From IMG/VR virus record IMGVR_UViG_3300035703_002708: a DNA stretch of 64,000 nucleotides. The stretch is one strand, 5' to 3'. Below the pieces are notes generated by a model that had not been told where the DNA came from, did no database searches, and saw only the letters and a program-made list of their open reading frames with translations. This document shows positions 43 to 53,974 of this stretch, piece by piece (the first letter of the stretch is position 1; each line of letters opens with the position of its first letter). A program made the translations under genes and the position numbers. Source of the DNA: a virus (Duplodnaviria; Caudoviricetes).

Positions 43-1671
43 ATGGAAATAGAGATAAATAGAAAATGTGACATGGTTGAACATTTTGGATTATCAACCG
101 TTAACGGACTAAGTGCACAACAACACCACGACGCTTTTGGTGTATTTAGAGATTTTGTAAACGAAGTCAAACCGAAAAGAATATTAGAAATAGGAACAGC
201 ATTAGGCGGTTTCATAGAATTTATACACAGATGTACTGTCGAATCGGATTTAGGTACTGAAATATGGAGTTATGACATCCATAATGTTAGTTGGTACAGT
301 GAACTCAATCGAAAGGGAATTCGGGTTAGAGTTGAAGATATATTTTCTAATGATTACTCAGCAGTTAAACAGGAAGTAATAGATTTCATCAAATCTGAAG
401 GTGTCACGATAATAATGTGTGATGGTGGAAACAAAAAAAAGGAATTCGCTATATTATCTAACTACTTAAAAGATGGTGATTTCATATTAGCCCATGATTA
501 TTGCGAAAATTCTGAAATTTTTCAAGAAAAAATAAATGGAAAAATTTGGAATTGGTGTGAAATATCAAATGACGATATTATCGACTCATGTAAACAAAAT
601 AATCTAAATTATTTTAAGAAAGAAATATTCGAATCGGTTGTATGGACATGCAGGGTAAAAGATAGGGCTAAACTAATATCCACAGTTAATACAACAAAGA
701 ATTATATCAAACCTATAAAAAGAAAAAAATTAATCATCCATCAACCGACAAACTTTTACAGTAAAAAAATAAGATATCACAGTATTTTTTGGGATGATTT
801 GATATCAGAACTATCAATAAGGCATGATGTCATAGTCGACAGATATCACAAGGATTGTCATAAAGGAATTGGTAATGTAAAGTTGGAGTTAGACGTAAAC
901 GATTCACCGTCTACTTTGAATGTTTTGGAATGTGAAATGATAATTGAGGATTATGAGACAGGTGAAACTAAGATTTTAAGTTGTGCTGACGATTTAACTC
1001 AAGCGGTCCTCAACCTTAAAGAAAATGATAAGGTAACTGAAATTTTTTATTCGCAGTTTATTCCCCAAAAAATATCATCCCACGTTGGGGAACAATTCAT
1101 TGACAAATACAAACCTTGGATTTATTTCCCATTCAATAAATTCGACTTAGATTTTTTCTATCAAAAAAGAAAAAATTTTGGTAAAAACTTAGTTGATAAA
1201 ATGTTTTTCAGCGGCGATTTAGGTTCTAGACCTTTTGTTAAAAATTTCGAAAAAAAATATTTAGACCATTATGGGTATTTAGGTCAATTTGAAACCTATG
1301 CAAACAGTTTGATAACCTATAAGGTCGCACTTTCTGTTGCGGGTAGAGGGGAGTTATGTTATAGAGATGTTGAGTGTATGGCAATGGGAGTTCCATTTAT
1401 AAGATTCGAATACTTCTCAAAATTGAATCCTAACCTAATTCCGAATTACCATTATATATCGGTTGATAGACCTGATAATTTTGACTCTTGGACCAAACTT
1501 GATAGGTTGGGCGAAAAAGAACAGGCGGACTTATTGATAAAAAGATTCTTGGAGGTTAAAGATGACCACGAATTTTTGAAATATATAAGTGACAATGCAA
1601 AAAAATATTACGAAGATTATTTGAGTCCCGAAAACTCAGTAAAACACACAATAAATTTATTAGGTCTTTAA
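43..1671 (+). CDS. SAM-dependent methyltransferase (CmcI/Methyltransf_24-like) fused to a C-terminal GT-B-type glycosyltransferase-like domain
   Basis: N-terminal PKRILEIGTALGG (SAM motif I), IIMCDGG and FILAHDY. C-terminal KVALSVAGRGELCYRDVECMAMGVP resembles the nucleotide-sugar-binding segment of GT-B enzymes. ATG at 43 (track starts at TTG 40). Confidence 0.65.
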   Translation: MEIEINRKCDMVEHFGLSTVNGLSAQQHHDAFGVFRDFVNEVKPKRILEIGTALGGFIEFIHRCTVESDLGTEIWSYDIHNVSWYSELNRKGIRVRVEDIFSNDYSAVKQEVIDFIKSEGVTIIMCDGGNKKKEFAILSNYLKDGDFILAHDYCENSEIFQEKINGKIWNWCEISNDDIIDSCKQNNLNYFKKEIFESVVWTCRVKDRAKLISTVNTTKNYIKPIKRKKLIIHQPTNFYSKKIRYHSIFWDDLISELSIRHDVIVDRYHKDCHKGIGNVKLELDVNDSPSTLNVLECEMIIEDYETGETKILSCADDLTQAVLNLKENDKVTEIFYSQFIPQKISSHVGEQFIDKYKPWIYFPFNKFDLDFFYQKRKNFGKNLVDKMFFSGDLGSRPFVKNFEKKYLDHYGYLGQFETYANSLITYKVALSVAGRGELCYRDVECMAMGVPFIRFEYFSKLNPNLIPNYHYISVDRPDNFDSWTKLDRLGEKEQADLLIKRFLEVKDDHEFLKYISDNAKKYYEDYLSPENSVKHTINLLGL

Positions 1672-1674
1672 AAA

Positions 1675-4044
1675 ATGCCATTCAGTACAAACTACTTCAA
1701 AGAACAAACAAAACTTTACATTAACGAAAACTTCCCGAAAGAATCCAAAATTTTGGATGTAGGGGCGGGTTCAGCGACCTATTACAACATGCTGTCACCT
1801 TTAGGATATACCAATATAGATTGTGTAGAAATTTTTGAAAAGTACATAAAGGATTATGAACTTGAAAAAAAATATAACCAAGTATTTAACGGCAACATTT
1901 GTGAATTGGATATAGATTTCACAAAATATGACCTAATAATATTAGGTGACGTATTGGAACACATAGACAAAAAAAGTGCAAAAAAACTAATCCAAAAAAT
2001 CGGTGATGTGGCAACTATAATTGGTGTACCATTCGAATCTGAGCAAGGAGAGCATTATGGTAATATTTATGAAACACACTTACAGGCTGATTTGACATTG
2101 GATATTTTCTTAGAAAGATACGACGAATATCAACCACTTTGTTTGAGATTCGATTATGGTATTTTTGTAAATAAAAAAGTCGATATAATTTTTATTGAGA
2201 CCGGTGAAAAAGAACTACCTGAAAAATTTCAGAAAAAAGTAAAATCAGAATTTTCAGAAAAAAAAGTAGTAAATGTTGCAGAAATAACTGTCGAACAACC
2301 AGTAACAGAAAAAAAAAGTAGTGACACAACAATTGTAACAGGTTTGTGGAATTTAGGAAGGGACAAAATATCACAGTCATTTAACAGAAGATATGATGAA
2401 TATCTAACTAGTTTTTCTAAACTTTTGGAATCTGATGCTAACATGTATATATTTTGTGACCCATCCGACGAAGAATTCATTTGGAAACATAGGAAGAAAG
2501 AAAATACTGTTATTAATAAAATGACTCTTGATGAGTTACTGAAATGGTTCGAATTTACAAACATAACAAACGAAATAAGAACTAAAGAAAGTTGGTTATC
2601 CCAAGCTGGATGGTTAAGAGATTCACCTCAAGCTACTTTGGAGGGATATAACCCCTTAGTAATGAGTAAAATGTTTATGTTGAACAACGTAACAATATGG
2701 AACCCATTCAAGTCGGAATACTTTTTTTGGATTGACGCTGGGATAACAAATACTGTTAATTACGGGTATTTCACTCATGATAAAGTTTTTGATAATTTAC
2801 CCAATTTCATAAACTCCAATGGAGAATTCATGTTTATTTCTTATCCATATATAGGTGGTGGTGAGATTCATGGATTTGAGAGAGAGGCAATTGCTAAATA
2901 CTCAAACACTGACTATGTCGATTATGTGTGTAGAGGAGGATTTTTTGGTGGAATCAAAGAAAAAGTGAACGAAATTAATGGAAAATATTATTACTACCTG
3001 TCTAAAACCTTGAATGATGGATTCATGGGTACAGAGGAAAGTGTGTTTACCATAATTTCGAACTTGGAAAAAGATATTTACAGATTTGTAATTGAGGATA
3101 ACGGACTTATTTGGCCTTTTTTCGAAGAATTGAAAAATTATAAAAACCTGAAACCAAAACCAATAAAGGAATTTAATCCGAATTCGTTAATTGATAAAAT
3201 AAGTGAAAATACAAAACAAGAAAAAAATAAAAATCCTGAAGAAATTGCTTTATATGTAATTGGGTTCAATTCCCCAAATCAGTTCAAAACCTTGATTCAT
3301 TCTATGGTTTTTTATGACAAAGATTTTTTAGAAAAACCAAAGAAATATTTATTGGATAACTCAACAGACCTTTCTACAACAGAAGAGTACCAACATCTTT
3401 GTAGTGTTTATGGTTTCGAGCACATTAAAAAAGATAATATTGGTATAACCGGCGGAAGACAATGGATTGCGGAACATTTCGAGGCAAGCGGACACAAGTA
3501 TTATATGTTTTTTGAAGACGATATGTTTTTTTCTTCAGATAGGATTGGAGTGTGTAGAAACGGTTTCAACAGATATGTTCCAAATTTACTCTCAAAACTT
3601 TTAAAAATAATGAAATCCGAAAGATTCCATTATCTAAAATTCAACTTTTCTGAATTTTTTGGTGACAACGGTACTCAGTGGTCTTGGTATAACGTACCTC
3701 AAGTTGTCAGAGAAAAAGAATTTCCTGAAAAAACAAAATTACCTCAACAAGGATTAGACCCCGAGGCGCCAAGGACTATATTTAAGAATATAAAAAGTGT
3801 TGAAGGATTGTCTTATATTACAGGTGATGTGTACTATTCTAATTGGCCTCAGATTATGTCAAAAGAAGGAAATAGAAAATGTTTCATTGATACAAAGTTT
3901 CAGTTTCCTTACGAACAAACAATAATGTCATTTATTTTTCAAGAAACTAGAAAAGGAAATATCAAACCCGCACTATTGTTACTGACACCAACTGAACATA
4001 ATAGGTTTGACCACTATGACGCATCTTTGAGAAAAGAGTGTTAA
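1675..4044 (+). CDS. Three-domain protein: SAM methyltransferase + HtrL/YibB(WlaTC)-like domain + GT-A glycosyltransferase
   Basis: ILDVGAGSATY ... DLIILGDVLEH (class I MTase). TTIVTGLWNLGR ... SKMFML ... NPFKSEYFFWIDAG (HtrL-like). ALYVIGFNSP ... YLLDNST ... NIGITGGRQ ... YMFFEDDMF (GT-A with DxD-type EDD). Confidence 0.7.
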   Translation: MPFSTNYFKEQTKLYINENFPKESKILDVGAGSATYYNMLSPLGYTNIDCVEIFEKYIKDYELEKKYNQVFNGNICELDIDFTKYDLIILGDVLEHIDKKSAKKLIQKIGDVATIIGVPFESEQGEHYGNIYETHLQADLTLDIFLERYDEYQPLCLRFDYGIFVNKKVDIIFIETGEKELPEKFQKKVKSEFSEKKVVNVAEITVEQPVTEKKSSDTTIVTGLWNLGRDKISQSFNRRYDEYLTSFSKLLESDANMYIFCDPSDEEFIWKHRKKENTVINKMTLDELLKWFEFTNITNEIRTKESWLSQAGWLRDSPQATLEGYNPLVMSKMFMLNNVTIWNPFKSEYFFWIDAGITNTVNYGYFTHDKVFDNLPNFINSNGEFMFISYPYIGGGEIHGFEREAIAKYSNTDYVDYVCRGGFFGGIKEKVNEINGKYYYYLSKTLNDGFMGTEESVFTIISNLEKDIYRFVIEDNGLIWPFFEELKNYKNLKPKPIKEFNPNSLIDKISENTKQEKNKNPEEIALYVIGFNSPNQFKTLIHSMVFYDKDFLEKPKKYLLDNSTDLSTTEEYQHLCSVYGFEHIKKDNIGITGGRQWIAEHFEASGHKYYMFFEDDMFFSSDRIGVCRNGFNRYVPNLLSKLLKIMKSERFHYLKFNFSEFFGDNGTQWSWYNVPQVVREKEFPEKTKLPQQGLDPEAPRTIFKNIKSVEGLSYITGDVYYSNWPQIMSKEGNRKCFIDTKFQFPYEQTIMSFIFQETRKGNIKPALLLLTPTEHNRFDHYDASLRKEC

Positions 4045-4052
4045 TATGATTT

Positions 4053-4077
4053 AATGGGGGAATTTTCCCCCATTTTT
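4053..4077 (+). terminator. Intrinsic terminator
   Basis: aatggggg-aatttt-cccccatt stem followed by T-run, just after the stop of 1675..4044. Confidence 0.8.
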
Positions 4078-4100
4078 ACTATCTCATATATTTATTATGT

Positions 4101-7100
4101 ATGGAATTTAATATAAAGAAAAATGGAACATTACCACTACTAAAAATGCAAGTGGTAGATGACGGAAGAGGTGAATTTGATTCATTTATGAGTTTTATTG
4201 AAACCTCATCTTTATATTTTTCCATGATGGATGTTGAAACGGGTTCATATAAAATACATTTGGACCCTGCAGGATTTGTAGAAAAAACTCAAATCGACCC
4301 AAATGCCAAAACAGAATACTACATATATTATAAGTTTCCAAAAAAGTACACCAACAAAGTTGGAAGATATGAGGGTGAGTTCGTTCTAAAAAACACAGAT
4401 GGGACACTTGTATTACCAATAAGAGAAAAACTTTACATTAATATTCAAGAAAGTTATGGTATTGAAGATGCTGACGAATTAATCAACTTAAGTTTAAGTT
4501 CGGTAATCACTTCTGGGTCAACAATACTTAATTATGTATTAACATCTGATAAGCCTGTCAAGTATGTCACCACAGTAAACTTTACACATACCTTACAAAC
4601 ATTTACAGGTGACAGTATCGTTATAACAACAGGAGTAACAATCAATCGTGGTGAAAAAGCAGGTGCGGTAACAATCACACTTCCTGACGTTGATTACTTT
4701 AATCTAACTCAAGAAACTAGTTTCTCAAATATAAAAGTATTCCCAATAGGTTTGAGGTCTTACACAAACATCACAGAAAAAGTTGTGTTTGTTTTACCAC
4801 CTTCTCAAAATATAACGGATGCGATTTTAACAGGGGTTCAAGACGAATACATTTCAGTTGGTAACAATTTCTACTTACAATTTATTGACCCAATTATTAT
4901 TGAAGACGCAATCCTTGCCGACCCTGAAAACTATATTAAAGTTGGTGAGGGTGTTTATTTAAGATTTATTGATACACCATCAGTTACCCTGACACCAACA
5001 CAAACTCCTACTCAAACACCAACACTTACTCCAACACCGACAGAAACAACCACACCAACTCCGACTGTTACACCAAGTGAAACACCGGTACCATTAGTTC
5101 CTCTCACACTTTATATTCAACCATTAAGTGGAGGTCAAGCAATTATTTTTGATGGTGTTACTTATACTTCAGAAACAACTGTAAATATTGTTAAAAGCAC
5201 ACCTTATAATATTGAAGCAGTTCCTACACCTGGTTTTGAGTTTGTTGGTTGGAATATATTCGGTGGTTCATTTTCATCTACAGGTCAATCAACGACAGTT
5301 TCGGTATCATTAGATTCGGGGGCTAATCTTGCACCATCATACGCAGTTGACCCCAATTTTGACGCTTTAGAGTACCAGTTGACAACAAGTTTATCAAGTT
5401 ACCAAAATGCAACAGACAACGATTGGGTTATAATTACTCAAGAAGAATATAATAATATATTCGGTAATGTTGACGGTGTTGTCAAAATTGGTAACAGTGA
5501 TGAACAAGTTAATACAAGGGATGTTGCAACAGGATATGATACAACAACTTTTGGTACAATAGATGCTAATACACCTCTTACAATCCCATCAGGATATTAT
5601 GTTGTAGGTTTTGTTGCCGAGTCTTGGAACCAAAACGGACAAGTCCAATTAGGATATACAACCACGTTCCATGAGGGGACTCCAACCTATATGGGTAATA
5701 GTCCGAATGTAATTGGTGGTATGACAATGTTTTACGTAAGGAAAAGACCATCAAATGTTGAAGGAGCGCCAGCATCTACCAATTTGTATCCTGTATTGAA
5801 TTTCTTACCGCCAGCATATCCAAACGCAGTTTTTAACACTTTCGGATGGTACACACTTGATAATGGTGCAAATTGGGCAGAAACGGTTTCGGCATTCCAA
5901 ACCGCTAAAATACAAATATTACTAACTAATATTAAGTCATGGCCATCGGCACCTCTACCAAGTCAAACGCCAACAATAACACCTACACAAACGCCGACTA
6001 AGACATTAACGCCAACAAATACTCAGACACCAACAATAACGCCAACAATAACCCCGACACCTAATTATATTCCATTTATATCTAAGTGGAATGTAAGTTC
6101 TTCTTTGGAGTTACCATATAGTCCCACAGGATTTTATAACGGTACGATAGATTGGGGTGACGGTAATATTTCTGCCAACACCTATGAAAATAGAACACAC
6201 ACATATGACTCACCTGGCGAATATACAGTTACAATTACAGGTAGAATAGAAGGTTGGGATTTTAGATATTTTGGAATAAGTAGTTCTTTGTTATTGACCG
6301 AAGTTATACAGTTCGGTACGATAAGAGGTGAAAATAACACATTTGATGGGATGTTCTATAACTGTTATTCACTTAATATGAACAACTGTGTTGATACACC
6401 TGACTTAGGAGGTATAACATCAACAACATATATGTTTTACTTCTGTCTTGCGATGGATAATATCTCAAATATTAATTCTTGGAATGTCTCGAGTGTAAAA
6501 GATATGTCATTTATGTTTAGAGATTGTCAAACTTTTAACTCAAACATATCAAACTGGAACGTTTCTAATTTACTAAACGCTACAGCAATGTTCCAATATT
6601 GTTGGGCGTTCAATCAAAACATATCAACATGGAATGTGTCTAAAATTACTAGAGTCAATATGGTACAAATGCTCCAAGGTGCTACGTCCTTCAATCAAGA
6701 TTTAAGTTCTTGGTGTGTTCCTTTAATTTCATCAAAACCGCCGCTATTTGATTCAAATACACCGCAATGGGTGTTACCTAAACCAATATGGGGCACATGT
6801 CCAGCACCAACACCCACACCAACACCAACACAAACGGTTACCCCATCCCAAACTCCAATTGTTGGTCCTTTACCTTTTGTTAGTAGATGGACTGCTAATC
6901 CAACTATTGAACTTCCTTTATCACCCACAGGGATTTACTCAGGAACAATAGATTGGGGTGACGGAAATATATCAGATTTAATCTATGACAATAGAGAACA
7001 CACGTATGCCTTCTCAGGTGATTATACCGTAACAATCACAGGACAAATCGAAGGGTGGGACTTTTTAAATTACGCTTACACATACAGACCAAACATTAAG

Positions 7101-7913
7101 GAAATTATGCAGTGGGGAACCTTAAGAGGTGAAGGTAATTCTAATGCTAATTTATTAACAGGTTGTAACAATTTAATTCTTACAGGAGTTACCGATACCC
7201 CAAATTTATCAGGTATAACGTCACTTAATAATATGTTTTCTTTTTGTTCATCTATTTCAACTATATCAAACATGAATAGTTGGGATGTTTCTTGGGTTGA
7301 TGACATGTCAGAAATGTTCTCATATGCAACACTATTCAATCAAAATATAGGAAGTTGGGATGTTTCTAATGTAACTAATATGTCGGGTATGTTTGGTAAC
7401 ACAACTCAATTTAATCAAAACATTGGAAATTGGGATGTCTCAAGTGTTACAAATATGTCTAATATGTTCAATAGTACAAATGTATTTGACCAAAATATCA
7501 GTAATTGGAATGTATCGGGTGCTACAAATATGGACAATATGTTCTTTGGTGCTTTTGTATTCAATCAGGATTTGAGTACTTGGTGCTTACCTCTGATACC
7601 ATCAGAACCAACAGGATTTTCCACAGGTGCAAGTTCGTGGTCGTTACCACAACCATTATGGGGTGGTAGAACAATCTATGTCAATTCATTATGGAATGGT
7701 GCTACCACAATAAATTCAAATTTTTTACAACTTACGCAAACACCTGACACTTTACTCATTAGAGTTAACGACACAATTACTGATGATTTGGATGCAACAT
7801 CAGTTGTTGGTCTTGTAACTTCGGATGGAACTTACACCTACGTAGGCACAGGACCTGGTGGAACTATCGCATTTGATTGTCAATTCCCACTTACATTTAC
7901 GGGACCTTGTTAA
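4101..7913 (+). CDS. Modular fibre/adhesin: BppU-like N-terminal anchor, Thr/Pro linkers, two PKD + BspA(DUF285)-type repeat units
   Basis: N-terminus paralogous to 10231..11058; three (TP)n linkers; two IDWGDG...HTY...G.YTVTITG PKD motifs, each followed by repeats of type WDVSNVTNMSGMF/FNQNIGNWDVS. Confidence 0.75.
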   Translation: MEFNIKKNGTLPLLKMQVVDDGRGEFDSFMSFIETSSLYFSMMDVETGSYKIHLDPAGFVEKTQIDPNAKTEYYIYYKFPKKYTNKVGRYEGEFVLKNTDGTLVLPIREKLYINIQESYGIEDADELINLSLSSVITSGSTILNYVLTSDKPVKYVTTVNFTHTLQTFTGDSIVITTGVTINRGEKAGAVTITLPDVDYFNLTQETSFSNIKVFPIGLRSYTNITEKVVFVLPPSQNITDAILTGVQDEYISVGNNFYLQFIDPIIIEDAILADPENYIKVGEGVYLRFIDTPSVTLTPTQTPTQTPTLTPTPTETTTPTPTVTPSETPVPLVPLTLYIQPLSGGQAIIFDGVTYTSETTVNIVKSTPYNIEAVPTPGFEFVGWNIFGGSFSSTGQSTTVSVSLDSGANLAPSYAVDPNFDALEYQLTTSLSSYQNATDNDWVIITQEEYNNIFGNVDGVVKIGNSDEQVNTRDVATGYDTTTFGTIDANTPLTIPSGYYVVGFVAESWNQNGQVQLGYTTTFHEGTPTYMGNSPNVIGGMTMFYVRKRPSNVEGAPASTNLYPVLNFLPPAYPNAVFNTFGWYTLDNGANWAETVSAFQTAKIQILLTNIKSWPSAPLPSQTPTITPTQTPTKTLTPTNTQTPTITPTITPTPNYIPFISKWNVSSSLELPYSPTGFYNGTIDWGDGNISANTYENRTHTYDSPGEYTVTITGRIEGWDFRYFGISSSLLLTEVIQFGTIRGENNTFDGMFYNCYSLNMNNCVDTPDLGGITSTTYMFYFCLAMDNISNINSWNVSSVKDMSFMFRDCQTFNSNISNWNVSNLLNATAMFQYCWAFNQNISTWNVSKITRVNMVQMLQGATSFNQDLSSWCVPLISSKPPLFDSNTPQWVLPKPIWGTCPAPTPTPTPTQTVTPSQTPIVGPLPFVSRWTANPTIELPLSPTGIYSGTIDWGDGNISDLIYDNREHTYAFSGDYTVTITGQIEGWDFLNYAYTYRPNIKEIMQWGTLRGEGNSNANLLTGCNNLILTGVTDTPNLSGITSLNNMFSFCSSISTISNMNSWDVSWVDDMSEMFSYATLFNQNIGSWDVSNVTNMSGMFGNTTQFNQNIGNWDVSSVTNMSNMFNSTNVFDQNISNWNVSGATNMDNMFFGAFVFNQDLSTWCLPLIPSEPTGFSTGASSWSLPQPLWGGRTIYVNSLWNGATTINSNFLQLTQTPDTLLIRVNDTITDDLDATSVVGLVTSDGTYTYVGTGPGGTIAFDCQFPLTFTGPC
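4975..5090 (+). repeat. Thr/Pro-rich linker repeat (TPSVTLTPTQTPTQTPTLTPTPTETTTPTPTVTPSETP)
   Basis: Translated repeat with diverged codons; similar tracts near 5960-6063 and 6803-6860. Confidence 0.9.
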
Positions 7914-7982
7914 TTTCTATATAATTTGATTTTCTAAATCAAAATAGAAAATTAAAAGTATTTATATAGAAAATTAAAAACG

Positions 7983-10220
7983 ATGCTAACAGGAAAAACC
8001 ATTGGTCAACTAACATTTTTAGAAACACCGACATCAGATACTTTGATACCCGTAGAATTAAACGGAGAAACTTACCACATGGCATATTCTGCCATTACCA
8101 CAAATGAAGTCGATGTATTTGTTACAGGGGGAACATTTAATAATAACACATTAACTTTCACAAATAATACCGGCGGAACATTCACAGTTACCGGTCTTAC
8201 CTCAGGTGGCGCTGGCGGCGGAATTGTTGAAACTACATACTCAGAACTTGTTAATTCTATAACAGGAGAAACATTATCAGCAGGGACTTATTACCTTATA
8301 AGTGATTTCAAAACCTGTTATGACCAACCTGACTTTGATTATAATGGTAGTGAAATCACATCAGGTAATTATAAAGACGATACGGAAGTTCAACCAATTA
8401 TTGTATTGGCGATAAGTTCAAACACAATTAGTGATAATGCTTTCCAACCGGCATACCCAAACGATAAAATCAAATATGATTGGACATTTAATCAAACAGA
8501 AGTGACAAATGGTCCCGCTTTCGGTAGGATTACCGAAAGAATTGACGAGTTTAATAACAGAACGGATTATGACCATAGGCAAATAAAGTTCAAAAGATAT
8601 AGATATTGGGAAATAGAATTTAGTAATCCTTATAATGGAACGGTTCAAGTTAATACCACATCTCAAACTGAAATGACAGTCTTAGGTACAAATACGAATT
8701 TTTTAAGTTTGGGAGTTGGTACCAAGGTAGGCTTCGATAACACTAATTATAAAGTATTTGAAATAACAAATATAGTTGACGACTTTGAAATGACAGTTAC
8801 AGGATTGACCTCTCAAGGGGCTGGTCCTAACATAAGAATGTATAGTGCAAATTGGAGTGAATATAGTAGTTATCGTCAAAACAACATAGAAACCACAGAG
8901 TTTTCAGAATACTATACATTCGATTTGGGAAATAATCCTAATTTTAATAATTACATAGGAAATTTCTCTAACTTAAAAAATTCTGACAATAATCCATTCC
9001 TATTGGCAAATAATGTTTTCAGATTCGCATTTGTTAACAACAAATTTGGTGATGCTTGTTACAACAACTCCTTTTTTGATGATTGTGAAAATAATAATAT
9101 AGGAAACTATTTTTATAGTAATATAACTGATGATGATTTTGACGGCAATCTTATCGGAAATTATTTTAATAACAATAGAATAACTTCAAATTTCCAACGA
9201 AATAGAATAGGTGAATCTTTTGAGGATAATTATTTAGTTCAAAATGATTTTTATAGAAACAACATTATGAATGATTTCAGAAACAACCAAATCAGTAACG
9301 GTGATTTTCAAAATAACGAAATTGGAAGTCAATTTGCAAATAATAAAATATTTGCACAATTCTATAAAAATGATATAGGTAACGGTTATAATAATAACGA
9401 GCACTACTCAGATGTTTATGGTAATTTAGTTGGTAATGGATTTAATAATAACAATATTTATTGTCAATTTTATGAAAATAAAATTGGTGATATTTTCGAA
9501 GGTAATGATTTAGGTAATGAGAACAACTTTGGTTCATATAGTTTTTATAAAAACGATATTGGTTCTGATTTTAATAACAATGATTGTTTAGGTACCTTTG
9601 CATACAACAGAATCGGTTCACAATTCTATAATAACATTTTAGGGGATGGATTTGGATATGGAGTTAACGCAAGTCAAGGTAATACTATCGGAAATTATTT
9701 TTATGATAATACCATTGGTGAATATTTTTACAACAATACGATTGCCGACGGATTTTTCAATAACAATACATTCGACTTTTTTCAAAACAACAACGTTAAA
9801 ATTCCTTTTCTTAATGGTATTGATTTTACTTTTTATTATGGAAATATTTCAGCATTCACTTATGTTGCAAATGGAAATAGTGCAACAGAAGGTTTATACA
9901 CAAATCTAACAGGTACAACAAATGGGCAGGGTATAACTGCCGCCTTTGATGTTGAGGTTTCAGGTAGTACTGTTATTTCGGTAAATGGGGCTTCTGTCGG
10001 GAAATATTATTCAGTGAACGATACAATAACAATACTCGGTAGTCAAATCGGAGGGGTAAATGGGGTCGATGACGTTGTTATAACAATCACAGGGGTTAGT
10101 TCAACACCAACGGTTTATGAAAGTTATAATTGTGAATTATTCATAAATTCAAATAACACAAATAGACTTTCTTATTATGATGGTTCCGACACATTGATAA
10201 TTAAAAATATTAATGAATAA
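7983..10220 (+). CDS. Tail fibre/spike-like protein with an Asn-rich right-handed beta-helix repeat region
   Basis: Fibre-type N-terminus (VFVTGGTFNNNTLTFTNNTGGTFTVTGL); about 10-11-residue periodic repeats such as NNIGNYFYSN, NLIGNYFNNN, NEIGSQFANN at about 8930-9830. Confidence 0.6.
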   Translation: MLTGKTIGQLTFLETPTSDTLIPVELNGETYHMAYSAITTNEVDVFVTGGTFNNNTLTFTNNTGGTFTVTGLTSGGAGGGIVETTYSELVNSITGETLSAGTYYLISDFKTCYDQPDFDYNGSEITSGNYKDDTEVQPIIVLAISSNTISDNAFQPAYPNDKIKYDWTFNQTEVTNGPAFGRITERIDEFNNRTDYDHRQIKFKRYRYWEIEFSNPYNGTVQVNTTSQTEMTVLGTNTNFLSLGVGTKVGFDNTNYKVFEITNIVDDFEMTVTGLTSQGAGPNIRMYSANWSEYSSYRQNNIETTEFSEYYTFDLGNNPNFNNYIGNFSNLKNSDNNPFLLANNVFRFAFVNNKFGDACYNNSFFDDCENNNIGNYFYSNITDDDFDGNLIGNYFNNNRITSNFQRNRIGESFEDNYLVQNDFYRNNIMNDFRNNQISNGDFQNNEIGSQFANNKIFAQFYKNDIGNGYNNNEHYSDVYGNLVGNGFNNNNIYCQFYENKIGDIFEGNDLGNENNFGSYSFYKNDIGSDFNNNDCLGTFAYNRIGSQFYNNILGDGFGYGVNASQGNTIGNYFYDNTIGEYFYNNTIADGFFNNNTFDFFQNNNVKIPFLNGIDFTFYYGNISAFTYVANGNSATEGLYTNLTGTTNGQGITAAFDVEVSGSTVISVNGASVGKYYSVNDTITILGSQIGGVNGVDDVVITITGVSSTPTVYESYNCELFINSNNTNRLSYYDGSDTLIIKNINE

Positions 10221-10230
10221 AAAATAAAAT

Positions 10231-11058
10231 ATGGAATGGTTCATTAAGAAAAACGCAACATTACCAGTTGTAAAAGTTAAACTATCACAAAATGGTAGAA
10301 GTGACTACATGAAAACTATGTCAAAACTTGGTGATTCAGTTGTGTATTTTTCTATGACCGATTCTGAAACAGGAATACCAAAAATTTCATCAACACCTGC
10401 AGTTGTTGAAACTGGACTCACAGATAGTGGAGAAATAGAATACTATACTTATTATCAGTTCAAAAAAAATCAAACAAAAAAAGTAGGGAGATTTTCTGCG
10501 GAGTTCATGGTGGCAAATACTGACGGAGTATTATTTTTACCTATAACAGAAAAAATTTATGTTAACATCATAGAAAGTTTTGCTATTGATGATGTTACAT
10601 TCACATCAAATTACGAAATAGAATTTCCATGTTGTAGTGATACCGTCGGTAGTCTCCAAACTAATAGTTTATCTCTTTATTCTTCTTACAGTCCGGGTTC
10701 AATTATTTGTGAATATACCGCAACAACACAATATTATGCAAATGAACCTCTGACAATAAATTTCACAAATGTTTTAGGAACCTTAATAGGAGAACCAATT
10801 ATTATAACCTCAGCAATCACTATAAATCAAGGTGAAAAGATTGGAACCATAACAGTAAATTTAGTTGAAGATTACAACAATCTTGACACAACATCAATAT
10901 TCTCTGCTGTAACAGTAAATTCATCAAACCCCATAAATTTCAAATATGAGATAAATTCTACCGAAGAATTTGCACCAAAACCAACACCAACTCCAATACC
11001 CGTATATACAGAGGGATTTAGTGGTATTGGTCTTGAATATCTGAATGATTTACTATAG
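10231..11058 (+). CDS. BppU-like fibre anchor protein, paralogue of the N-terminal part of 4101..7913
   Basis: MEWFIKKNATLPVVKVKL vs MEFNIKKNGTLPLLKMQV; KKVGRFSAEF vs NKVGRYEGEF; LFLPITEKIYVNI vs LVLPIREKLYINI. Confidence 0.65.
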   Translation: MEWFIKKNATLPVVKVKLSQNGRSDYMKTMSKLGDSVVYFSMTDSETGIPKISSTPAVVETGLTDSGEIEYYTYYQFKKNQTKKVGRFSAEFMVANTDGVLFLPITEKIYVNIIESFAIDDVTFTSNYEIEFPCCSDTVGSLQTNSLSLYSSYSPGSIICEYTATTQYYANEPLTINFTNVLGTLIGEPIIITSAITINQGEKIGTITVNLVEDYNNLDTTSIFSAVTVNSSNPINFKYEINSTEEFAPKPTPTPIPVYTEGFSGIGLEYLNDLL

Positions 11059-11061
11059 TTG

Positions 11062-11850
11062 ATGACAAAAAAATTAATACCTTATATGTCATACTGGTCA
11101 AAAGGGTATCAAGGAAATCCTTCAGACTTTGTTTTAAACTTACATAAGTTATGTTTTTATTTCCTAAAAAAAAATTTTGGAGAAGTTCACTTTATTACCG
11201 ATAGTGAAAGTTTTGATTATTTCAATTTTTTGCCTTGGACTTCAATTTCCAAAGATTTGGATGACTTAAATAGTGAATACAAAAATGTTTGGAGTATAAG
11301 TAAGTTATTTGTTTATCAAATTATTTCACAAAAAGGACATCCTTTTTTTCACGTTGATTATGATGTATTATTACCTGAAGGTTTAGAAGAACAAATTTTG
11401 AAATCGGATTTGTTTGCTCAATGTACCGAACATAATTCAATTCATCACTATAGGATAAATGATTTTTTGAAAAATTGTCCAAACCCATATGAAATAAAGA
11501 ATTTACAAGTGCAAGATGCGATTAACGTAGGTGTTTTAGGTGGTAATGATGTTGAGTTCATTAACAAGTATGCAACAAAGGCACTTCAAATGGTTTTCGA
11601 CCCCTTGAATAAAAATTATTGGTTAAATTATGATGATAGTACAAGTTGGTTAAAGGCGGTAACCGCAGAGCAATATTACTTGTCGGTTTTAGTAAAAAAA
11701 TATAAAAAAAATATAGAATATATTTTTCCTAATGGATGGCCAACCGAACAAGAGGCAAAAGAAAAAAAATTCATACATTTGATGGGAATTAAGGAAAATA
11801 GACAAATATATCCTATCATTGAACAATTAACGAAAAAATATATTGTGTGA
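11062..11850 (+). CDS. Putative nucleotide-diphospho-sugar transferase (DUF6734-like GT-A fold)
   Basis: VHFITDSE, W..SKLFVY, PFFHVDYDV (DxD), AINVGVLGG, AEQYYL, FIHLMG pattern. Confidence 0.55.
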   Translation: MTKKLIPYMSYWSKGYQGNPSDFVLNLHKLCFYFLKKNFGEVHFITDSESFDYFNFLPWTSISKDLDDLNSEYKNVWSISKLFVYQIISQKGHPFFHVDYDVLLPEGLEEQILKSDLFAQCTEHNSIHHYRINDFLKNCPNPYEIKNLQVQDAINVGVLGGNDVEFINKYATKALQMVFDPLNKNYWLNYDDSTSWLKAVTAEQYYLSVLVKKYKKNIEYIFPNGWPTEQEAKEKKFIHLMGIKENRQIYPIIEQLTKKYIV

Positions 11851-11861
11851 GTTTTATAAAT

Positions 11862-11890
11862 TTGACTTAACCTCTCTCAATATTTATCAT
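11862..11890 (+). promoter_or_regulatory. Sigma70-like promoter upstream of the DNA polymerase, overlapping a TATTTAT motif
   Basis: TTGACT (11862-67), 17-nt spacer, TATCAT (11885-90); TATTTAT at 11881-87. Confidence 0.5.
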
Positions 11891-16223: not shown

Positions 16224-17762
16224 TTAACCCACCTTTTTTATCAGGGAGTCATTAGGAAATGTATAATTGCCACCGACTATTTTGGTATCAGAATTTTTAA
16301 AAATTAACATCTCACCATTTTTATTGGTAAAAATAATCCAATCCGTTTTGTATGGCTTGACATTTGCGGTACCATAGATTTCATATTTATCATCTGATTT
16401 ATCATAACCAGTAAAAGGTTTGATTTGTGCGGTATGTTTTTTTTCATTGATAACAATCTCGGCATCTATTCCACCCATCATATCATCAGTACTACCAAGT
16501 TTACCTACCTTCAAAACATTTTCATCACCAAACACTTTCTTTAATAAGACTATTGATTGATTTTCGGTTTTCTCACCAAACATACTTGTTCTACTTAAAT
16601 TCGAAATTAGATTTTGAAATGTTTTGGACTTTGTCGAAAAAATTCTGAATTTGAATTGGTCCATAATATGAACCATTCTTCTAACTTCTTCTACTTGTTT
16701 TTTTGGTGATTGACCTATTAATTGTAATGTTGGTTTATTTTGAGACCTTAACAATTTGTTGATATCATTAACCAAAATACAAAAACCGCTATAGTTTGTA
16801 TTAAGATAGTTTATAACTGACCTACCTTCTGATTCTAAATTATAGATACCAGATTGCTCTCCTTCTGTGTATTCATTTTCTTCGTAATACCTGTCAGAAA
16901 AAACATCTTTTAGTATTGATTGAACACCTTTTTTGTAAATTTGTTTTACTGTAGGATTGGTGTTAAAAATAAACCTATAGGCTTCTTTATCCTGTCTTGA
17001 ACACGACTCACTAACACCTTCAGATATTATTCTTTTTGTGTTAACTGACTCATCAAGTTTCGTTTTGACTTTCATGGTGTACATTTTATTTACGAATTTC
17101 CAATTAATTGCTTTGAAAAAGTTTCTGACGTAATCGTCTCTTTTATTTTTGTATCGTAAATAATATGCGTGTTCCCACAAATCAAGACCCAATAACGGAT
17201 ATCCACCATTTCTAACGATGTTCATAAGTGGATTATCTTGGTTTGGTGTAGTCATAATCTTCAAACTACCAGACTTGGTTAATACCAACCAAATCCATCC
17301 TGACCCGAAATTCTTTTTTGCCTTTTCGGTAAATTCTTGTTTGAACCCTAAAAAATTATGGAAGTCCTTTTTAATTCTGTCGTAAATCTGACCACCACAT
17401 TTCTGTTCCGTCGGAGATAACATTTTCCAAAATAAGGCATGATTAAAAGCACCACCAGCGTTATTTCTAATTGTTTTGTTATACTTACCAATTGATTTAA
17501 TTATTTCCTCTAACTCAACATCACCGTAATCTTTTTTACTTAATGCGTCATTTAATTTGTCTACATAAGTTTTGTAATGTCCGTTGTAATGGTAAGACAT
17601 CGTCTCAGGGTCAATAAATTGTTTTAAAGCAGAATAGGAATATGGTAGTTTCTCAATTCCTATTTTTTTCATTTCGTTTATAAACAATTTTTCATTTTCC
17701 TTTGTGTCTATTTCTTTTATTTGATTGGCTATTTGTTCTACTTTCTCTTGAAGTTTTTTCAT
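16224..17762 (-). CDS. sod: Mn/Fe superoxide dismutase fused to a C-terminal PD-(D/E)xK-like domain
   Basis: LPYSYSALKQFIDPETMSYHYNGHYKTY, NNAGGAFNHALFW, FGSGWIWL, TPNQDNP, DLWEHAYY (all four metal ligands). C-terminal E...GID...QIK pattern. Confidence 0.9.
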   Translation of the reverse strand: MKKLQEKVEQIANQIKEIDTKENEKLFINEMKKIGIEKLPYSYSALKQFIDPETMSYHYNGHYKTYVDKLNDALSKKDYGDVELEEIIKSIGKYNKTIRNNAGGAFNHALFWKMLSPTEQKCGGQIYDRIKKDFHNFLGFKQEFTEKAKKNFGSGWIWLVLTKSGSLKIMTTPNQDNPLMNIVRNGGYPLLGLDLWEHAYYLRYKNKRDDYVRNFFKAINWKFVNKMYTMKVKTKLDESVNTKRIISEGVSESCSRQDKEAYRFIFNTNPTVKQIYKKGVQSILKDVFSDRYYEENEYTEGEQSGIYNLESEGRSVINYLNTNYSGFCILVNDINKLLRSQNKPTLQLIGQSPKKQVEEVRRMVHIMDQFKFRIFSTKSKTFQNLISNLSRTSMFGEKTENQSIVLLKKVFGDENVLKVGKLGSTDDMMGGIDAEIVINEKKHTAQIKPFTGYDKSDDKYEIYGTANVKPYKTDWIIFTNKNGEMLIFKNSDTKIVGGNYTFPNDSLIKKVG

Positions 17763-30011: not shown

Positions 30012-33000
30012 ATGGCAACACCATCTACATTACAACAAGCACAACAAGCAGGACCAAAGTCACAGTCACAAACTGAGGGTAGTTTTTTATCATACGAATC
30101 CTCACAAGTCTTCAGAGAAGAATTGATTATAAAAAATTTGGTCCCTTATAATATTGCGGGTATAAACTCAGAACCGCAAGGGACTGTAATATATCAACAA
30201 AGCCCACCTGACTTAGCAGCAACAGAACAATTATTTTCCATAGATGGATTAGGGTTAACGCCTGTTATTAGAAATGAAAACCCTGACCAATTAATTGTCC
30301 CCTCGACATATCTTGCCTACAACGTATTAACTAGTCCTAATCCTGTGGGTGATAAAGGACCATTATCTAACGATTCTTATTTGGCAAAAATAGGTGCCCA
30401 AGTTCTGAAAAAATCCCTATTAGAAACAAATGCTTTTTATATAAATCAAACAATATCTAGTGAAAATTCAATAAGTTTTAAAATAACAACACCTGATGTT
30501 AATGATACTTTTGAAAGTAAACTTTCAGGAGCTTATTTTCCCGCCTCACCAATTCCTGGTGATTACTTTTTAGATGGGTTAAATAAACGTAATACAGATA
30601 CTTTAGGTGAGGCAATAAATTTAGCCGCAGGAAGGAGTACTAGGTTAGGAGGTATATTCAGTGGTTCTTTAACTAGAGCAATCACTCCTTCACAAATCTT
30701 TTTGGAAAACACAAATGAAGGTCAAAAAAGTTTGATGTTTGCTAATTTGTCCTACAATATTTATCGTCCTGCTTATGCTAATTCTGCTTTAGGAGGTATT
30801 GCGGGTAACTTGTTAACAACTGGTATCAATAACTTATTAGATAATTTCGGTTTACAATTACCCGGTGCATATTATGTTGGTTCATCAGTTTCTGAACCAA
30901 GTTTTGCAAATAGTCCAATTAATCAAGTACCAATTGATGTTTATGGAAGAGATACTCAGGCCTTAGTTTTAGGTCCCGATGTATTAGGTAAAGATTATGA
31001 AGGAAATGAGAGTAGTATCAATTTCGGATTAAAATCAAACGCATTAATTGACCAAGGGAATTTGGAGGGGGACTTAATTTGGGTTTCACCAAAATACAAA
31101 GCAGGTAATTCATCCTTTTATTCGACTAATATTGATTTCAAACCTGGTTCGATTTTAGATGATACACAAAGATTAATAGACGCTGCTGATAGGTTACAAG
31201 GTGATGCTCGATTAAAACATGTTGGTAATGCTATCAATCAAGTAAGTAGGACTTTTAATGATGGATATAGAAATATCACAAAAGGGTCACAAGTTAGAGA
31301 AGTAAAATATTTGAACGGTAAAGCGGAAGTTGGAACTGAATATTGTAGAATATTTACGAAAGATGCTCCATATGCAACATATAATAGGTTACAAAAATCT
31401 GATGGTATTACAAAATTTGGGAGAAAATTCTCATATTCGGTTTTGGATAATGCTTATAATTTAAATATATATCCAACTAAAAAAACTGGTTCAGAAGACC
31501 CATCATGGTTAAGTGAAGGTAGAGTAAAAAAGTATATGTTTTCTATTGAAAACTTGGCTTGGAAGGACTCAAAAAAACCAGGGTTCAATGTCCAAGATTT
31601 ACCACCATGCGAGCAAGGACCAAATGGAGGTAGAATTATGTGGTTCCCGCCCTATGATTTAAAATTTAATGATAATTCAAGTGCTGATTGGCAACAAACA
31701 ACATTTTTAGGTAGACCCGAACCTGTTTATACTTATAGAAACACATCTAGAAACGGAACCTTGAGTTGGAAAATTGTTGTCGACCACCCATCCGTATTAA
31801 ATTTAATAGTTGATAAGATATTGACTAATGAAATCGATTCAAATGCCGATAAGGTATTAGACTCATTCTTTGCGGGTTGCCAAACTTATGATTTATATGA
31901 GTTTGCTAGTAGATTCAATAAAGTTGGTTTAAATGATTTACAATATATTCAAGAAGTAATATCAAATGCTACCCCTGATGAAATAACTAACATTGTCGAC
32001 AGTATACCAACGGACAAAACTCAGACAACGACAGCCGAAAAAGTAGATTATATAACTGAGACGATACAACCAGAACCATTTCCAAAAGACAAGTTCATAG
32101 GTATTGGTTATTATTTTAATAACGATATACCTAAACCAACAGAAACAGACCCCTCAAGTTATCAGTCATACTATGATAGTTATTACTCTCAGAAACAAAC
32201 ATTCGTTAACACAACAATTGATGATAAAGAAGCGGTAGGAAGATTTTTTGATGAAATTATAAAATATAACTATGATAAAACAATATCAGGAATTGCAGAC
32301 CCAGGTTTGATTTTTACAATTTATGATTTTTTTGAGAGAAAACAGATTAAAAGTTTAACAATCAACTTAAAAGGATGTGCATCTGCAAGTGCATCAGTAG
32401 ATTATAATAACAAATTGGCACTCAGAAGAATAAAATCAGTAAAAAAATTCTTGGAGAGTCATCAGATATCAAGTGGGGATACTACAATATCCTTGTCGAA
32501 ATATAGTAGTCAGATAAAAATAAACGATACTGTGTTGGGCGAAACCGCGACTGATGTCTCACCAGTTGGTAATTCTTCTTTTAGAACTGTCGCCGCGTGT
32601 ACGACTAATCCTGTAATCAATGGACAAACAATAACTGGAAACAAGTCAATTTATCTATTACCGTCGATGTCTTGTCGGAGCGTTTTTATTTCTGATATAG
32701 TAACAGAACCTGGTGACCCACAAACAAAACAAACGGAAGTTAAAACTTTAGTCACAACAACAACACCTGTTACCGAGCCTAAAAAAACTATAACACCGGG
32801 TAAAGAACCTCAAGTGAGTGAACCTGTTTTTGAAACTATCAGACAACAAGGGTTAAGTAAAAAAGTTTTAAGATTACTTTTAACCGAATGTAATTATTTT
32901 CAAGCCTTGAAAGAAACAAATCCCTTCTTATATAGAAGTTTGAAAGAAAAATTAAAATTTTTCGAACCAACATTCCATTCAACAACTCCTGAAGGATTAA

Positions 33001-53902: not shown

Positions 53903-53974
53903 TAAATTTATTTTTCAATAAGTTTGACTATTTTATTAAAATAGAATATAAACTATTTATTCGAAAAGTATTTG

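Follow-up and report, generated by a model that had tools for sequence, protein, structure and literature searches.

A probable self-made sugar coat on the surface proteins of a freshwater giant phage

To judge from its sequence, a freshwater giant phage probably adds sugars to the proteins on its own surface. Two of its genes, P0001 and P0002, encode fusions of methyltransferases and glycosyltransferases, and they lie beside genes for fiber-like proteins with Thr/Pro (TP) tracts. Because the pairing of P0001/P0002-type enzymes with Thr/Pro fiber-like proteins recurs in distant phages and in bacteria, we consider self-glycosylation to be probable. We have moderate confidence in a more specific proposal, which is that the phage encodes a cassette for mucin-type O-glycosylation of proteins in the cytoplasm and that P0001 and P0002 elongate and tailor its glycans. 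Chloroviruses, mimiviruses, and some mycobacteriophages have been established to glycosylate their own particles with viral enzymes, and among phages this is considered a rarity.

The stretch of DNA that we analyzed (the window) has 64,000 nucleotides and is from IMG/VR virus record IMGVR_UViG_3300035703_002708. We focused on positions 43-11850. A check of the open reading frames in this region showed that all six are on the + strand, with the coordinates below (the basis for each description is in parentheses):

43..1671, + strand: P0001, a fusion of a CmcI/COMT-like SAM methyltransferase and a GT-B domain (AF2, VIA-align)
1675..4044, + strand: P0002, a class I methyltransferase, an HtrL_YibB GT-A domain, and a GnT-I/B4GALNT1-like GT-A domain (Pfam, AF2, Foldseek, VIA)
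4053..4074, + strand: a terminator-like G+C hairpin with a T-run, directly 3' of the P0002 stop (nine-pair stem)
4101..7913, + strand: P0003, a modular fiber-like protein (DUF285 and PKD from Pfam; N-domain)
4974..5096, + strand: Thr/Pro linker 1 of P0003, residues 292-331 (tract scan)
5952..6074, + strand: Thr/Pro linker 2 of P0003, residues 618-658 (tract scan)
6783..6860, + strand: Thr/Pro linker 3 of P0003, residues 897-919 (tract scan)
7983..10220, + strand: P0004, an Asn-rich repeat protein of 745 amino acids (viral relatives only)
10231..11058, + strand: P0005, a short paralog of the N-terminal part of P0003 (sequence identity, Atlas structure)
11062..11850, + strand: P0006, a DUF6734 GT8-like GT-A glycosyltransferase (Pfam, Atlas, alignment)

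P0001 has two domains, and the mean pLDDT of its AF2 model is 78. Residues 10-208 (approximately nucleotides 67-663), whose pLDDT is just 45-89, have the fold of a class I SAM methyltransferase: VIA-align matched them to TrmR (Z = 15.0), CmcI (Z = 13.7), a caffeoyl-CoA OMT-like structure (Z = 13.8), and several cation-dependent O-methyltransferases. This domain also has a glycine-rich motif (LEIGTALGG). By fold and motif, residues 10-208 are a probable class I SAM methyltransferase, even though their Pfam scores are below the cut-offs (17.2 vs. 27 for Methyltransf_23 and 15.0 vs. 23.2 for RMNT_CmcI). Residues 227-543 (approximately nucleotides 718-1668) have a GT-B fold, and most of this domain is modeled with pLDDT above 90. 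They do not match any family in Pfam, and their structural matches include GlgM (Z = 15.7, 273 aligned), POGLUT2 (Z = 15.0), mycobacterial ManT (Z = 14.9), and PimB' (Z = 14.7). The C-terminal domain also stands alone, as a family of proteins of about 315 amino acids.

P0002 has three domains, and its AF2 model has a pLDDT of 88.5. Residues 1-200 (nucleotides 1675-2274) match Methyltransf_11 in Pfam (23.3 bits, versus a cut-off of 21.2), have a methyltransferase fold (Z = 13-14 to BelI, CysG-N16, SgvM, and Hen1), and contain the SAM glycine-rich motif LDVGAGS at residues 27-33. Residues 214-492 (nucleotides 2314-3150) belong to HtrL_YibB (PF09612; 61.6 bits, versus a cut-off of 24.1). This domain aligns to E. 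coli HtrL with a TM-score of 0.68 (normalized to HtrL, 271 aligned); the VIA alignments for the model of the whole protein barely reach it. Residues 520-789 (nucleotides 3232-4041) have a GT-A fold and are similar to B4GALNT1 (Z = 15.2), POMGnT1 (Z = 14.7), and GnT-I (Z = 14.5). In an alignment of 40 homologs, both E614-D615-D616 and the WxD motif at residues 352-354 are invariant, and GnT-I uses an EDD motif. Overall, the expectation of two methyltransferase-glycosyltransferase fusions was correct in that both proteins are fused, but according to its AF2 model, P0002 has two glycosyltransferase domains and thus three domains instead of two. The methyltransferase folds of P0001 and P0002 are generic, and their near structural neighbors include methyltransferases that act on RNA, proteins, or small molecules.

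The structural neighbors of the glycosyltransferase domains of P0001 and P0002 are GT-A or GT-B enzymes that glycosylate glycans or proteins, along with multi-GT proteins from giant viruses. In particular, Foldseek aligned the HtrL and GT-A pair of P0002 to the tandem GT-A enzymes LARGE1, K4CP, LH3/COLGALT1, and Mimivirus R699 (E = 7e-12 to 1e-7). Of these, LARGE1 and LH3/COLGALT have glycans on proteins as their targets. The likeness does not extend to the whole chain, for which TM-scores are about 0.2 (a result of differently oriented domains) and identity is about 10%. Sequence searches of the PDB with P0001, P0002, and P0006 found weak methyltransferase matches only, and the sole match from a megablast of the 12 kb against a phage collection was to a DUF285 repeat in Synechococcus phages.

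P0002 has at least 4,979 homologs, and over 575 viral contigs encode a relative of the core enzyme (the HtrL/GT-A pair). The original prediction named co-occurrence of such clusters with TP-linker fibers as a check, and the core does co-occur very strongly with Thr/Pro-tract proteins. We found ORFs with TP tracts within 10 kb of the core in 62 of 80 viral loci, versus 2 of 80 control loci (centered on NrdA, from the same phage lineage), although common descent accounts for part of the synteny inside a single phage lineage, so that these 80 loci are not independent events. The density of TP residues was 11.2 per kb at the core loci and 0.03 per kb at the controls. Of the 39 loci with 8 kb of sequence on both sides, 34 had TP-tract ORFs. 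Most of the TP ORFs (144/150) share the strand of the glycosyltransferase, and just 21 of the 150 have a P0003-type N-domain. The core is accompanied by a homolog of the GT60 polypeptide GlcNAc-transferases (PF11397) in 72 of 83 loci and by methyltransferase genes or domains in 32 of 83 loci (versus 0 of 80 controls). P0002-type cores are fused to methyltransferases from three families (Methyltransf_23/11, FkbM, and TylF/Methyltransf_24).

Independent lineages show the linkage as well. A GT60, an HtrL/GT-A protein, and a neighboring TP-linker protein (of 3313 or 3139 amino acids) are all encoded in Xanthomonas phage XacN1 and in Stenotrophomonas phage RAS14. Among bacteria of several phyla, GT60 adjoins HtrL/GT-A in 31 of 38 loci, and small TP-repeat proteins are adjacent to the pair in at least 15 loci. 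In a tree, the lineages fall in separate groups. At the locus that we studied, too, a Thr/Pro-tract gene (P0003) is adjacent to the HtrL/GT-A gene (P0002). XacN1 virions have glycoprotein bands that are positive by periodic-acid-Schiff staining (PMC5852040). XacN1 is a distant relative of our phage, and these bands are the sole experimental link.

Alternatively, the transferases might make or remodel a non-protein glycan during infection, such as the host's LPS core, O-antigen, capsule, or exopolysaccharide, with superinfection exclusion or release as possible outcomes; the Thr/Pro proteins would then be unrelated cargo. No biochemical activity is known for the HtrL_YibB family, and its cellular members are found in LPS/LOS loci, including those of E. 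coli, Salmonella, Campylobacter, and Acinetobacter (PMC4172580). Also, the structural neighbors of our enzymes include the tandem GT-A polysaccharide polymerases K4CP, heparosan synthase, and BcsA, and the LPS enzymes WaaG and WaaB are among the GT-B neighbors. The HtrL (YibB) of E. coli is a single-domain protein from the LPS core locus; the corresponding domain of P0002 is fused to a second GT-A domain and a methyltransferase, and its relatives are linked to GT60 and TP proteins. However, the characterized members of GT60, the conserved partner, are all known to act on polypeptides. Furthermore, TP-tract genes are linked to the cassette both in phages and across several bacterial phyla, and the six genes P0001-P0006 do not include any Wzx/Wzy, flippase, or lipid-carrier genes or encode any TM-like membrane segments. 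For these reasons, we view a non-protein glycan as an unlikely target.

Similarly, we doubt that proteins are glycosylated away from the Thr/Pro linkers, whether on host proteins or, in the manner of mycobacteriophages, on subunits of the capsid or tail. The TP tracts would then be flexible spacers that are kept by synteny, and a plain flexible linker is a possible role for such tracts. Freeman et al. 2023 reportedly found that glycosylation of mycobacteriophage virions hits subunits of the capsid and the tail tube. Also, the glycoprotein bands of XacN1 carry no protein assignment (PMC5852040), and in our phage, the terminator-like hairpin at 4053..4074 separates the enzymes from P0003. This hairpin is the strongest of six terminator-like sites in the 12 kb, which is a count no higher than in shuffled sequences. 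Between the hairpin and P0003 there is a TATTTAT motif, and a scan for sigma-70 promoters gave no excess over shuffles. Given the hairpin, co-expression of the enzymes and P0003 is not required. On the other hand, the link to TP proteins holds in bacteria, which have no capsids and where the neighbor is a small TP-repeat protein. And TP tracts are about 370-fold enriched beside the cassette relative to other regions of the same phages.

A third explanation is hypermodification of the phage's DNA, with glucosylation and methylation of modified bases as a defense against restriction. The C-terminal domain of P0002 has a weak match to TAGT (PF20691, E = 0.039) and another weak match to the PHROG for the T-even beta-glucosyl-HMC alpha-glucosyltransferase (E = 1.5e-5 over 80 residues), and at 55 of the 83 loci, the cassette adjoins DNA polymerase B. 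But the match to TAGT is just 14.3 bits (versus a cut-off of 27.5) and covers 35 of 205 positions, and the match to phrog_842 spans 85 of 270 positions. Both are confined to the nucleotide-sugar/DxD region and are below the cut-off for the family. The 50 best structural matches, from the PDB or from viruses, did not include a T-even DNA glucosyltransferase, and we found no hydroxymethylase, TET/JBP, or similar gene in the 64 kb. The cassettes of XacN1 and RAS14 do not adjoin the polymerase, and the bacterial copies adjoin secreted TP proteins. Because the matches are partial and weak and there are no base-modification neighbors in the 64 kb, we rejected this reading, which is very improbable. 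Of the refuting conditions set out with the original prediction, two were tested (matches to DNA-modification or LPS enzymes, and a lack of co-occurrence with TP fibers), and neither one refutes it.

Returning to protein O-glycosylation, the putative substrates are among the three middle genes, P0003-P0005, which are presumably fiber genes. P0003 begins 57 nucleotides past P0002. It has an N-domain that is conserved (residues 1-230), three Thr/Pro linkers, an InlB-B-like repeat, and two units of PKD plus DUF285 (a BspA-type LRR); Pfam identifies DUF285 with 223 bits, and PKD as well. In at least 53 related loci, the gene that comes immediately after HtrL/GT-A starts with a P0003-type N-domain. 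Thr/Pro linkers had been expected in all three middle genes, but among the ORFs of at least 100 amino acids in the 64-kb window, only P0003 has tracts in our scan. P0005, whose similarity to the N-domain of P0003 is 39% identity, has just the nine residues PKPTPTPIP (at approximately 10975-11001), and P0004 has no tract. P0004 did not match any family in Pfam or PHROG, its neighbors in the Atlas are viral without exception, and it is present in 8 of 83 related loci; it is doubtful that P0004 is part of the glycosylation system. Metagenome contigs that map to this stretch are short pieces with heavy cross-mapping over the Thr/Pro-coding repeats. Some contigs appeared to join one linker to another (5024 to 6008 or 6810, or 6831 to 10971), and we discounted these joints, as their short sides have 85% likeness.

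The N-domains might be related to BppU_N. In the Atlas model of P0005, residues 1-119 align to the BppU_N cluster, with a TM-score of 0.82 by hit and 0.36 by query. However, Pfam did not find BppU_N in P0003 or P0005, nor was there a consistent Pfam match for 25 homologous N-domains, and a profile of 25 P0003-type N-domains had no match in the PDB. Because the profile has no PDB match and no consistent Pfam match, the assignment of P0003 and P0005 to BppU_N is just a lead.

The third DxD glycosyltransferase-like gene of the original prediction, P0006, is borne out, but not as part of the conserved module. It matches DUF6734 (110.6 bits, versus a Pfam cut-off of 27), and its Atlas model resembles GT-A enzymes from GT8 and GT77 (TM-scores of 0.61-0.69). 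D100-Y101-D102, H240, and K245 are invariant in an alignment of its homologs. We take the DxD motif and the C-terminal HxxGxxK motif to be a GT8 signature. Relatives of P0006 adjoin fiber-like genes that lack TP tracts, and a single-sequence scan of viral contigs with P0006 found no matches. DUF6734 was found in 0 of 83 related cassette loci. The HtrL/GT-A core is linked to TP genes, but P0006 is a separate GT8-like enzyme that is tied to fiber genes and that is a neighbor here. P0006 is unlikely to be essential to the glycosylation pathway. Comparative genomics, which is the sole source of support, partly supports the virion glycosylation and O-methylation originally proposed, with DUF6734 as an exception.

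In the pathway that we infer (its protein acceptor, order of steps, sugar identities, glycan methylation, and location on the virion), a GT60-type polypeptide GlcNAc-transferase, which we observed directly in relatives only, would start the glycans on the Thr residues of the Thr/Pro tracts. P0002 would then add further sugars with its two GT-A domains (one HtrL-type and one GnT-I-like, with EDD), and P0001 would do likewise with its GT-B domain. Finally, the fused SAM methyltransferase domains would O-methylate the newly added sugars, as in the chlorovirus protein A064R, which combines two glycosyltransferases with a methyltransferase. The acceptors would be modular appendages that the phage itself encodes and that bear Thr/Pro linkers, namely P0003 and perhaps the short linker of P0005, and they would be modified inside the infected cell, ahead of assembly. 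The benefits might include shielding, protease resistance, altered binding to the host surface, or host-like camouflage.

A064R, from PBCV-1, has two glycosyltransferase domains and a sugar 2-O-methyltransferase domain, and a separate protein, A061L, is a second methyltransferase (PMC9614988). A064R makes the glycan of the capsid and caps it with methyl groups. Like P0002, it is soluble, is encoded by a virus, and combines in a single chain two glycosyltransferase domains with one methyltransferase domain of the class I SAM type, and as in the chlorovirus, our cassettes have both fused and separate methyltransferases. But the order of domains is GT-GT-MTase in A064R and MTase-GT-GT in P0002, and P0002 gave no sequence match or top-50 structural match to A064R. 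Also, A064R acts on N-linked glycans of the capsid protein of a eukaryotic virus, while here the target is likely an O-glycan on the Thr/Pro tracts of phage appendages.

GT60 enzymes place alpha-GlcNAc on Thr residues of the mucins of T. cruzi (PMC3769586). As in the pathways of protists (the pp-alpha-GlcNAc-transferases of T. cruzi and Dictyostelium), relatives of our cassette have a GT60 partner with acceptor-like Thr/Pro-rich tracts adjacent. In the Skp1 pathway of Dictyostelium, a two-domain glycosyltransferase (PgtA) acts after the initiator (Gnt1), as the two-GT enzyme would in the proposed system, and PgtA is among the structural matches to P0002 (rank 18). Unlike the protist pathways, the proposed system is prokaryotic or viral, has no Golgi, has fused methyltransferases, and draws its elongators from the HtrL_YibB, GnT-I-like GT-A, and GT-B families. 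What mycobacteriophages would have in common with our phage is glycosyltransferases of the phage that act, in the cytoplasm, on structural proteins of the same phage, but the mycobacteriophage enzymes belong to other families, and their targets are C-terminal extensions of capsid and tail-tube proteins instead of Thr/Pro linkers. The mycobacteriophage system was shown by experiment, while the P0001/P0002 system is known from genes and models.

More tentatively, jumbo phages and bacteria of several phyla may share a previously undescribed cytoplasmic mucin-type O-glycosylation system, to which P0001 and P0002 would belong, although we would not put this at even odds. It would comprise a GT60 initiator, a bifunctional HtrL/GT-A elongator, and optional fused O-methyltransferases, with Thr/Pro-repeat proteins as the dedicated substrates. 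The appendages of the phages would carry a brush of methylated glycans, like the surface proteins of their hosts. The bacterial Thr/Pro-repeat proteins have a Tat-like leader and a C-terminal anchor, and might be exported in an already glycosylated form.

The glycosylation and methylation cassette is widespread: its carriers, in which it is closely linked to mucin-like Thr/Pro proteins, are jumbo phages of fresh and marine waters, cultured phages of Xanthomonas and Stenotrophomonas, and bacteria. The cultured carriers, XacN1 and RAS14, make the model open to direct testing. If it is correct, then the uncharacterized HtrL_YibB family would gain a role, its first function, and P0001 and P0002 would represent new multi-domain enzymes that build and methylate glycans. 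Mucin-type O-glycans would be common on the surfaces of phages, which would bear on their adsorption and stability as well as on grazing and immune recognition.

The window comes from a jumbo myovirus. Among its genes are those for the tail sheath and tail tube, for baseplate hub and wedge proteins and for gp25, and also those for a DnaB-like helicase, a family B DNA polymerase, class I ribonucleotide reductase and a UvsX-like recombinase. Viral contigs with close relatives are up to 304-323 kb, and freshwater metagenomes from several studies contain near-identical pieces of the window. We also noticed a gene (16224-17762, - strand) that joins an Fe/Mn superoxide dismutase domain (amino acids 36-226) to a C-terminal region of about 280 amino acids without a Pfam family; a relative (L003) has a superoxide dismutase gene at the equivalent place, after a gp13-like gene. 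Three very large ORFs in the tail and baseplate region, at 30012-34631 (1539 amino acids), 34946-41401 (2151) and 53972-59572 (1866), lack both a Pfam family and Thr/Pro tracts.

Six ORFs, all on the + strand, occupy 43-11850:

43-1671, +, P0001: class I SAM methyltransferase and GT-B domains in the predicted model
1675-4044, +, P0002: three domains in the predicted model (pLDDT 88.5)
4053-4074, +, strong terminator-like hairpin, directly after P0002 and before P0003
4101-7913, +, P0003: conserved N-terminal region, linker 1, InlB-B-like repeat and a region without assignment, linker 2, PKD and DUF285, linker 3, PKD and DUF285
7983-10220, +, P0004: 745 amino acids, Asn-rich, degenerate NNxxGxxF-type repeats
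10231-11058, +, P0005: N-terminal domain of the P0003 type
11062-11850, +, P0006: DUF6734 (Pfam)

The predicted folds agree with the original prediction that P0001 and P0002 are methyltransferase-glycosyltransferase fusions, except that P0002 holds two glycosyltransferase domains. Residues 10-208 of P0001 are a class I SAM methyltransferase, nearest to the cation-dependent O-methyltransferase/CmcI group (structural matches: TrmR, Z 15.0; CmcI, Z 13.7). Residues 227-543 form a GT-B glycosyltransferase (GlgM, Z 15.7; POGLUT2, Z 15.0; ManT, Z 14.9; PimB', Z 14.7), which also exists as a stand-alone family of about 315 amino acids without a Pfam model. P0002 comprises a class I methyltransferase (Pfam; structural Z about 14), HtrL_YibB (Pfam, 61.6 bits; TM 0.68 against E. 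coli HtrL), and a GT-A domain nearest to B4GALNT1, POMGnT1 and GnT-I (structural Z 14.5-15.2), whose E614-D615-D616 is invariant among 40 homologues. In structure searches, the GT-A pair, or HtrL/GT-A core, matches the tandem GT-A enzymes LH3, COLGALT1, LARGE1, K4CP and Mimivirus R699, as well as giant-virus multi-GT proteins. Several structural neighbours are polysaccharide enzymes, and HtrL relatives without known activity are located in LPS/LOS loci (PMC4172580), so it is possible that the enzymes act on a non-protein glycan. The idea that they hypermodify DNA, which would have counted against the original prediction, is poorly supported. There are matches to TAGT and β-glucosyl-HMC transferase, but these are partial and below cut-off; the structural neighbours of P0001 and P0002 include no DNA glycosyltransferase, no base-modifying partner gene was found within the 64-kb window, and bacterial copies adjoin secreted repeat proteins.

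Thr/Pro (TP) linkers had been proposed for three fibre or anchor genes. We found three tracts in P0003 (4974-5096, 5952-6074 and 6783-6860) and, in a tract scan, none in any other ORF of the 64-kb window. P0004 has none and P0005 has just the 9-residue PKPTPTPIP, so substantial linkers are confined to P0003. Freshwater metagenome contigs cross-map at very high depth to the DNA that encodes these tracts, and to that at 10971, with apparent joints between different linkers (short sides, 85% likeness); the repeats may recombine to shuffle modules, or this may be mere cross-mapping. Neither Pfam nor PHROG has a family for P0004, and its Atlas neighbours are viral only.

The first 230 residues of P0003 are 39% identical to P0005. 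An N-domain of this type (about 120 amino acids) opens the gene directly 3' of the HtrL/GT-A gene in at least 53 related loci, while the distal parts differ. Phage appendage proteins typically retain a constant attachment domain and swap distal modules. Profile searches of the N-domain against PDB and Pfam gave no match, and one Atlas structural alignment was the sole hint of a BppU_N-like fold. P0003 is thus a putative virion-located appendage protein.

The hairpin and a TATTTAT motif lie between the enzyme genes and P0003, so gene order does not imply co-expression. (TATTTAT stands ahead of three genes, P0003, P0004 and that for the DNA polymerase, in regions 4053-4100, 7955-7975 and 11875-11890, and may be a phage promoter element.) The original prediction also expected such enzymes to co-occur with TP proteins across related phages, and they do. 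Homologues of the HtrL/GT-A core number at least 4979, and relatives are encoded on more than 575 viral contigs. We took the 80 top-ranking viral loci (49-63% identity), looked within 10 kb for ORFs with Thr/Pro tracts, and used as controls 80 loci from the same phage lineage centred on NrdA (about 80% identity). Such ORFs were present in 62/80 core loci (143 ORFs; 11.2 tract residues per kb) versus 2/80 controls (one 17-residue tract each; 0.03 per kb). Where at least 8 kb was available on both sides, 34/39 loci were positive. Nearly all tract-bearing ORFs (144/150) lie on the same strand as the GT gene; 112 are upstream of it, and most others are within 4 kb downstream.

Among 83 related viral loci with the core, 72 encode a homologue of GT60, a polypeptide GlcNAc-transferase family (PF11397), 60 the P0003-type N-domain, and 11 the P0001-type GT-B domain. 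Methyltransferase genes or domains occur in 32 of the 83 and in none of the controls. Across homologues, the core is fused to three different methyltransferase families (Methyltransf_23/11-type, FkbM, and TylF/Methyltransf_24), which argues that methylation targets the product of these glycosyltransferases.

The linkage is also found in other phages and in bacteria. In Xanthomonas phage XacN1 and Stenotrophomonas phage RAS14, GT60 (45-49% identical to a relative's GT60) and HtrL/GT-A (37-45%) each lie a few kb from a TP-linker protein of 3313 or 3139 amino acids, whose gene in XacN1 comes after baseplate wedge genes. GT60 adjoins HtrL/GT-A in 31/38 loci from bacterial genomes (Bacteroidota, Pseudomonadota, Acidobacteriota, Verrucomicrobiota and others), and at least 15 of these 31 loci have an adjacent small protein that is largely Thr/Pro or Ser/Thr/Pro repeats. 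These proteins have a conserved Tat-like leader (RRxLLxALG...WVKPVID) and, at the C-terminus, a hydrophobic segment plus basic tail, or, in Bacteroidota (L170, L171, L172, L194), a T9SS-type C-terminal domain instead. They look like a dedicated substrate family that would be exported once modified in the cytoplasm. Thr/Pro proteins with the Tat-like leader, by locus, are:

L174, 5470-6336
L176, 5848-6828
L183, 1485-2033
L184, 11414-12121
L189, 8484-9209
L191, 8534-9196
L201, 6945-7418
L205, 9170-9694

The three-way linkage of GT60, HtrL/GT-A and a Thr/Pro protein is still seen at about 31-35% identity and with very different substrate architectures, so inherited synteny alone is insufficient to explain it. 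It is possible that the enzymes modify proteins at targets other than TP tracts. In a tree of the core (L001-L206), which was midpoint-rooted only, the Xanthomonad phages cluster with a Verrucomicrobia sequence, chromosomal copies from Bacteroidota (Saprospiraceae, Leadbetterellaceae) group in a well-supported clade among viral sequences, and those from proteobacteria and acidobacteria fall outside. The position of the Bacteroidota clade points to an exchange of genes with these phages; we claim no direction of transfer.

P0006 had been predicted to be a third, DxD-containing GT-like enzyme of the glycosylation module. Its Atlas model resembles GT8/GT77 enzymes, and DYD 100-102, H240 and K245 are invariant in an alignment of relatives, so a GT8-like enzyme is credible. 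Its place in the module is not supported: DUF6734 is absent from all 83 related loci, which puts P0006 outside the conserved cassette. The two DUF6734 relatives with context come after large fibre-like genes (one encoding an LRR_5 protein, one a collagen-like repeat protein), and neither fibre-like protein has TP tracts. P0006 may act on a different appendage or acceptor, and it is rather unlikely to belong to the P0001/P0002 pathway. The C-terminal end of P0005 (11020-11058) has the motif GFSGIGLEYLNDLL, which resembles the end (FAGIGLALLDLI) of a 161-amino-acid protein upstream of a DUF6734 gene (L166:4996-5481). This likeness suggests that the small protein and DUF6734 are a conserved pair.

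In Trypanosoma cruzi, GT60 enzymes add α-GlcNAc to Thr of mucin-like tracts (PMC3769586). The phage GT60 would, by analogy, start glycans on TP tracts; P0002 (two glycosyltransferases) and P0001 (one) would lengthen them, and the methyltransferases fused to these would methylate the sugars added. All of the enzymes are predicted to be soluble (no membrane-like segment in any of P0001-P0006), so modification would occur in the cytoplasm, ahead of assembly. Accessory enzymes vary around the constant GT60 and HtrL/GT-A (methyltransferases, GT-B, a Fringe-like GT, and a carbamoyltransferase in XacN1), which fits glycan diversification. A precedent for P0001 and P0002 is A064R of PBCV-1, a single chain that combines two rhamnosyltransferase domains with a 2-O-methyltransferase domain; PBCV-1 also has a second, separate methyltransferase (PMC9614988). 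Purified XacN1 virions have at least two Schiff-positive glycoprotein bands; the proteins behind them were not named, and the authors proposed phage glycosyltransferases as the makers (PMC5852040). The XacN1 homologue of HtrL/GT-A, ORF330, was annotated there as hypothetical (PMC5852040). Our literature searches turned up no account of phages with GT60/HtrL cassettes or with mucin-like Thr/Pro proteins. The process that these genes would carry out is of an already known kind, in which a virus encodes the glycosylation of its own structural proteins, including by an enzyme with two glycosyltransferases and a methyltransferase.
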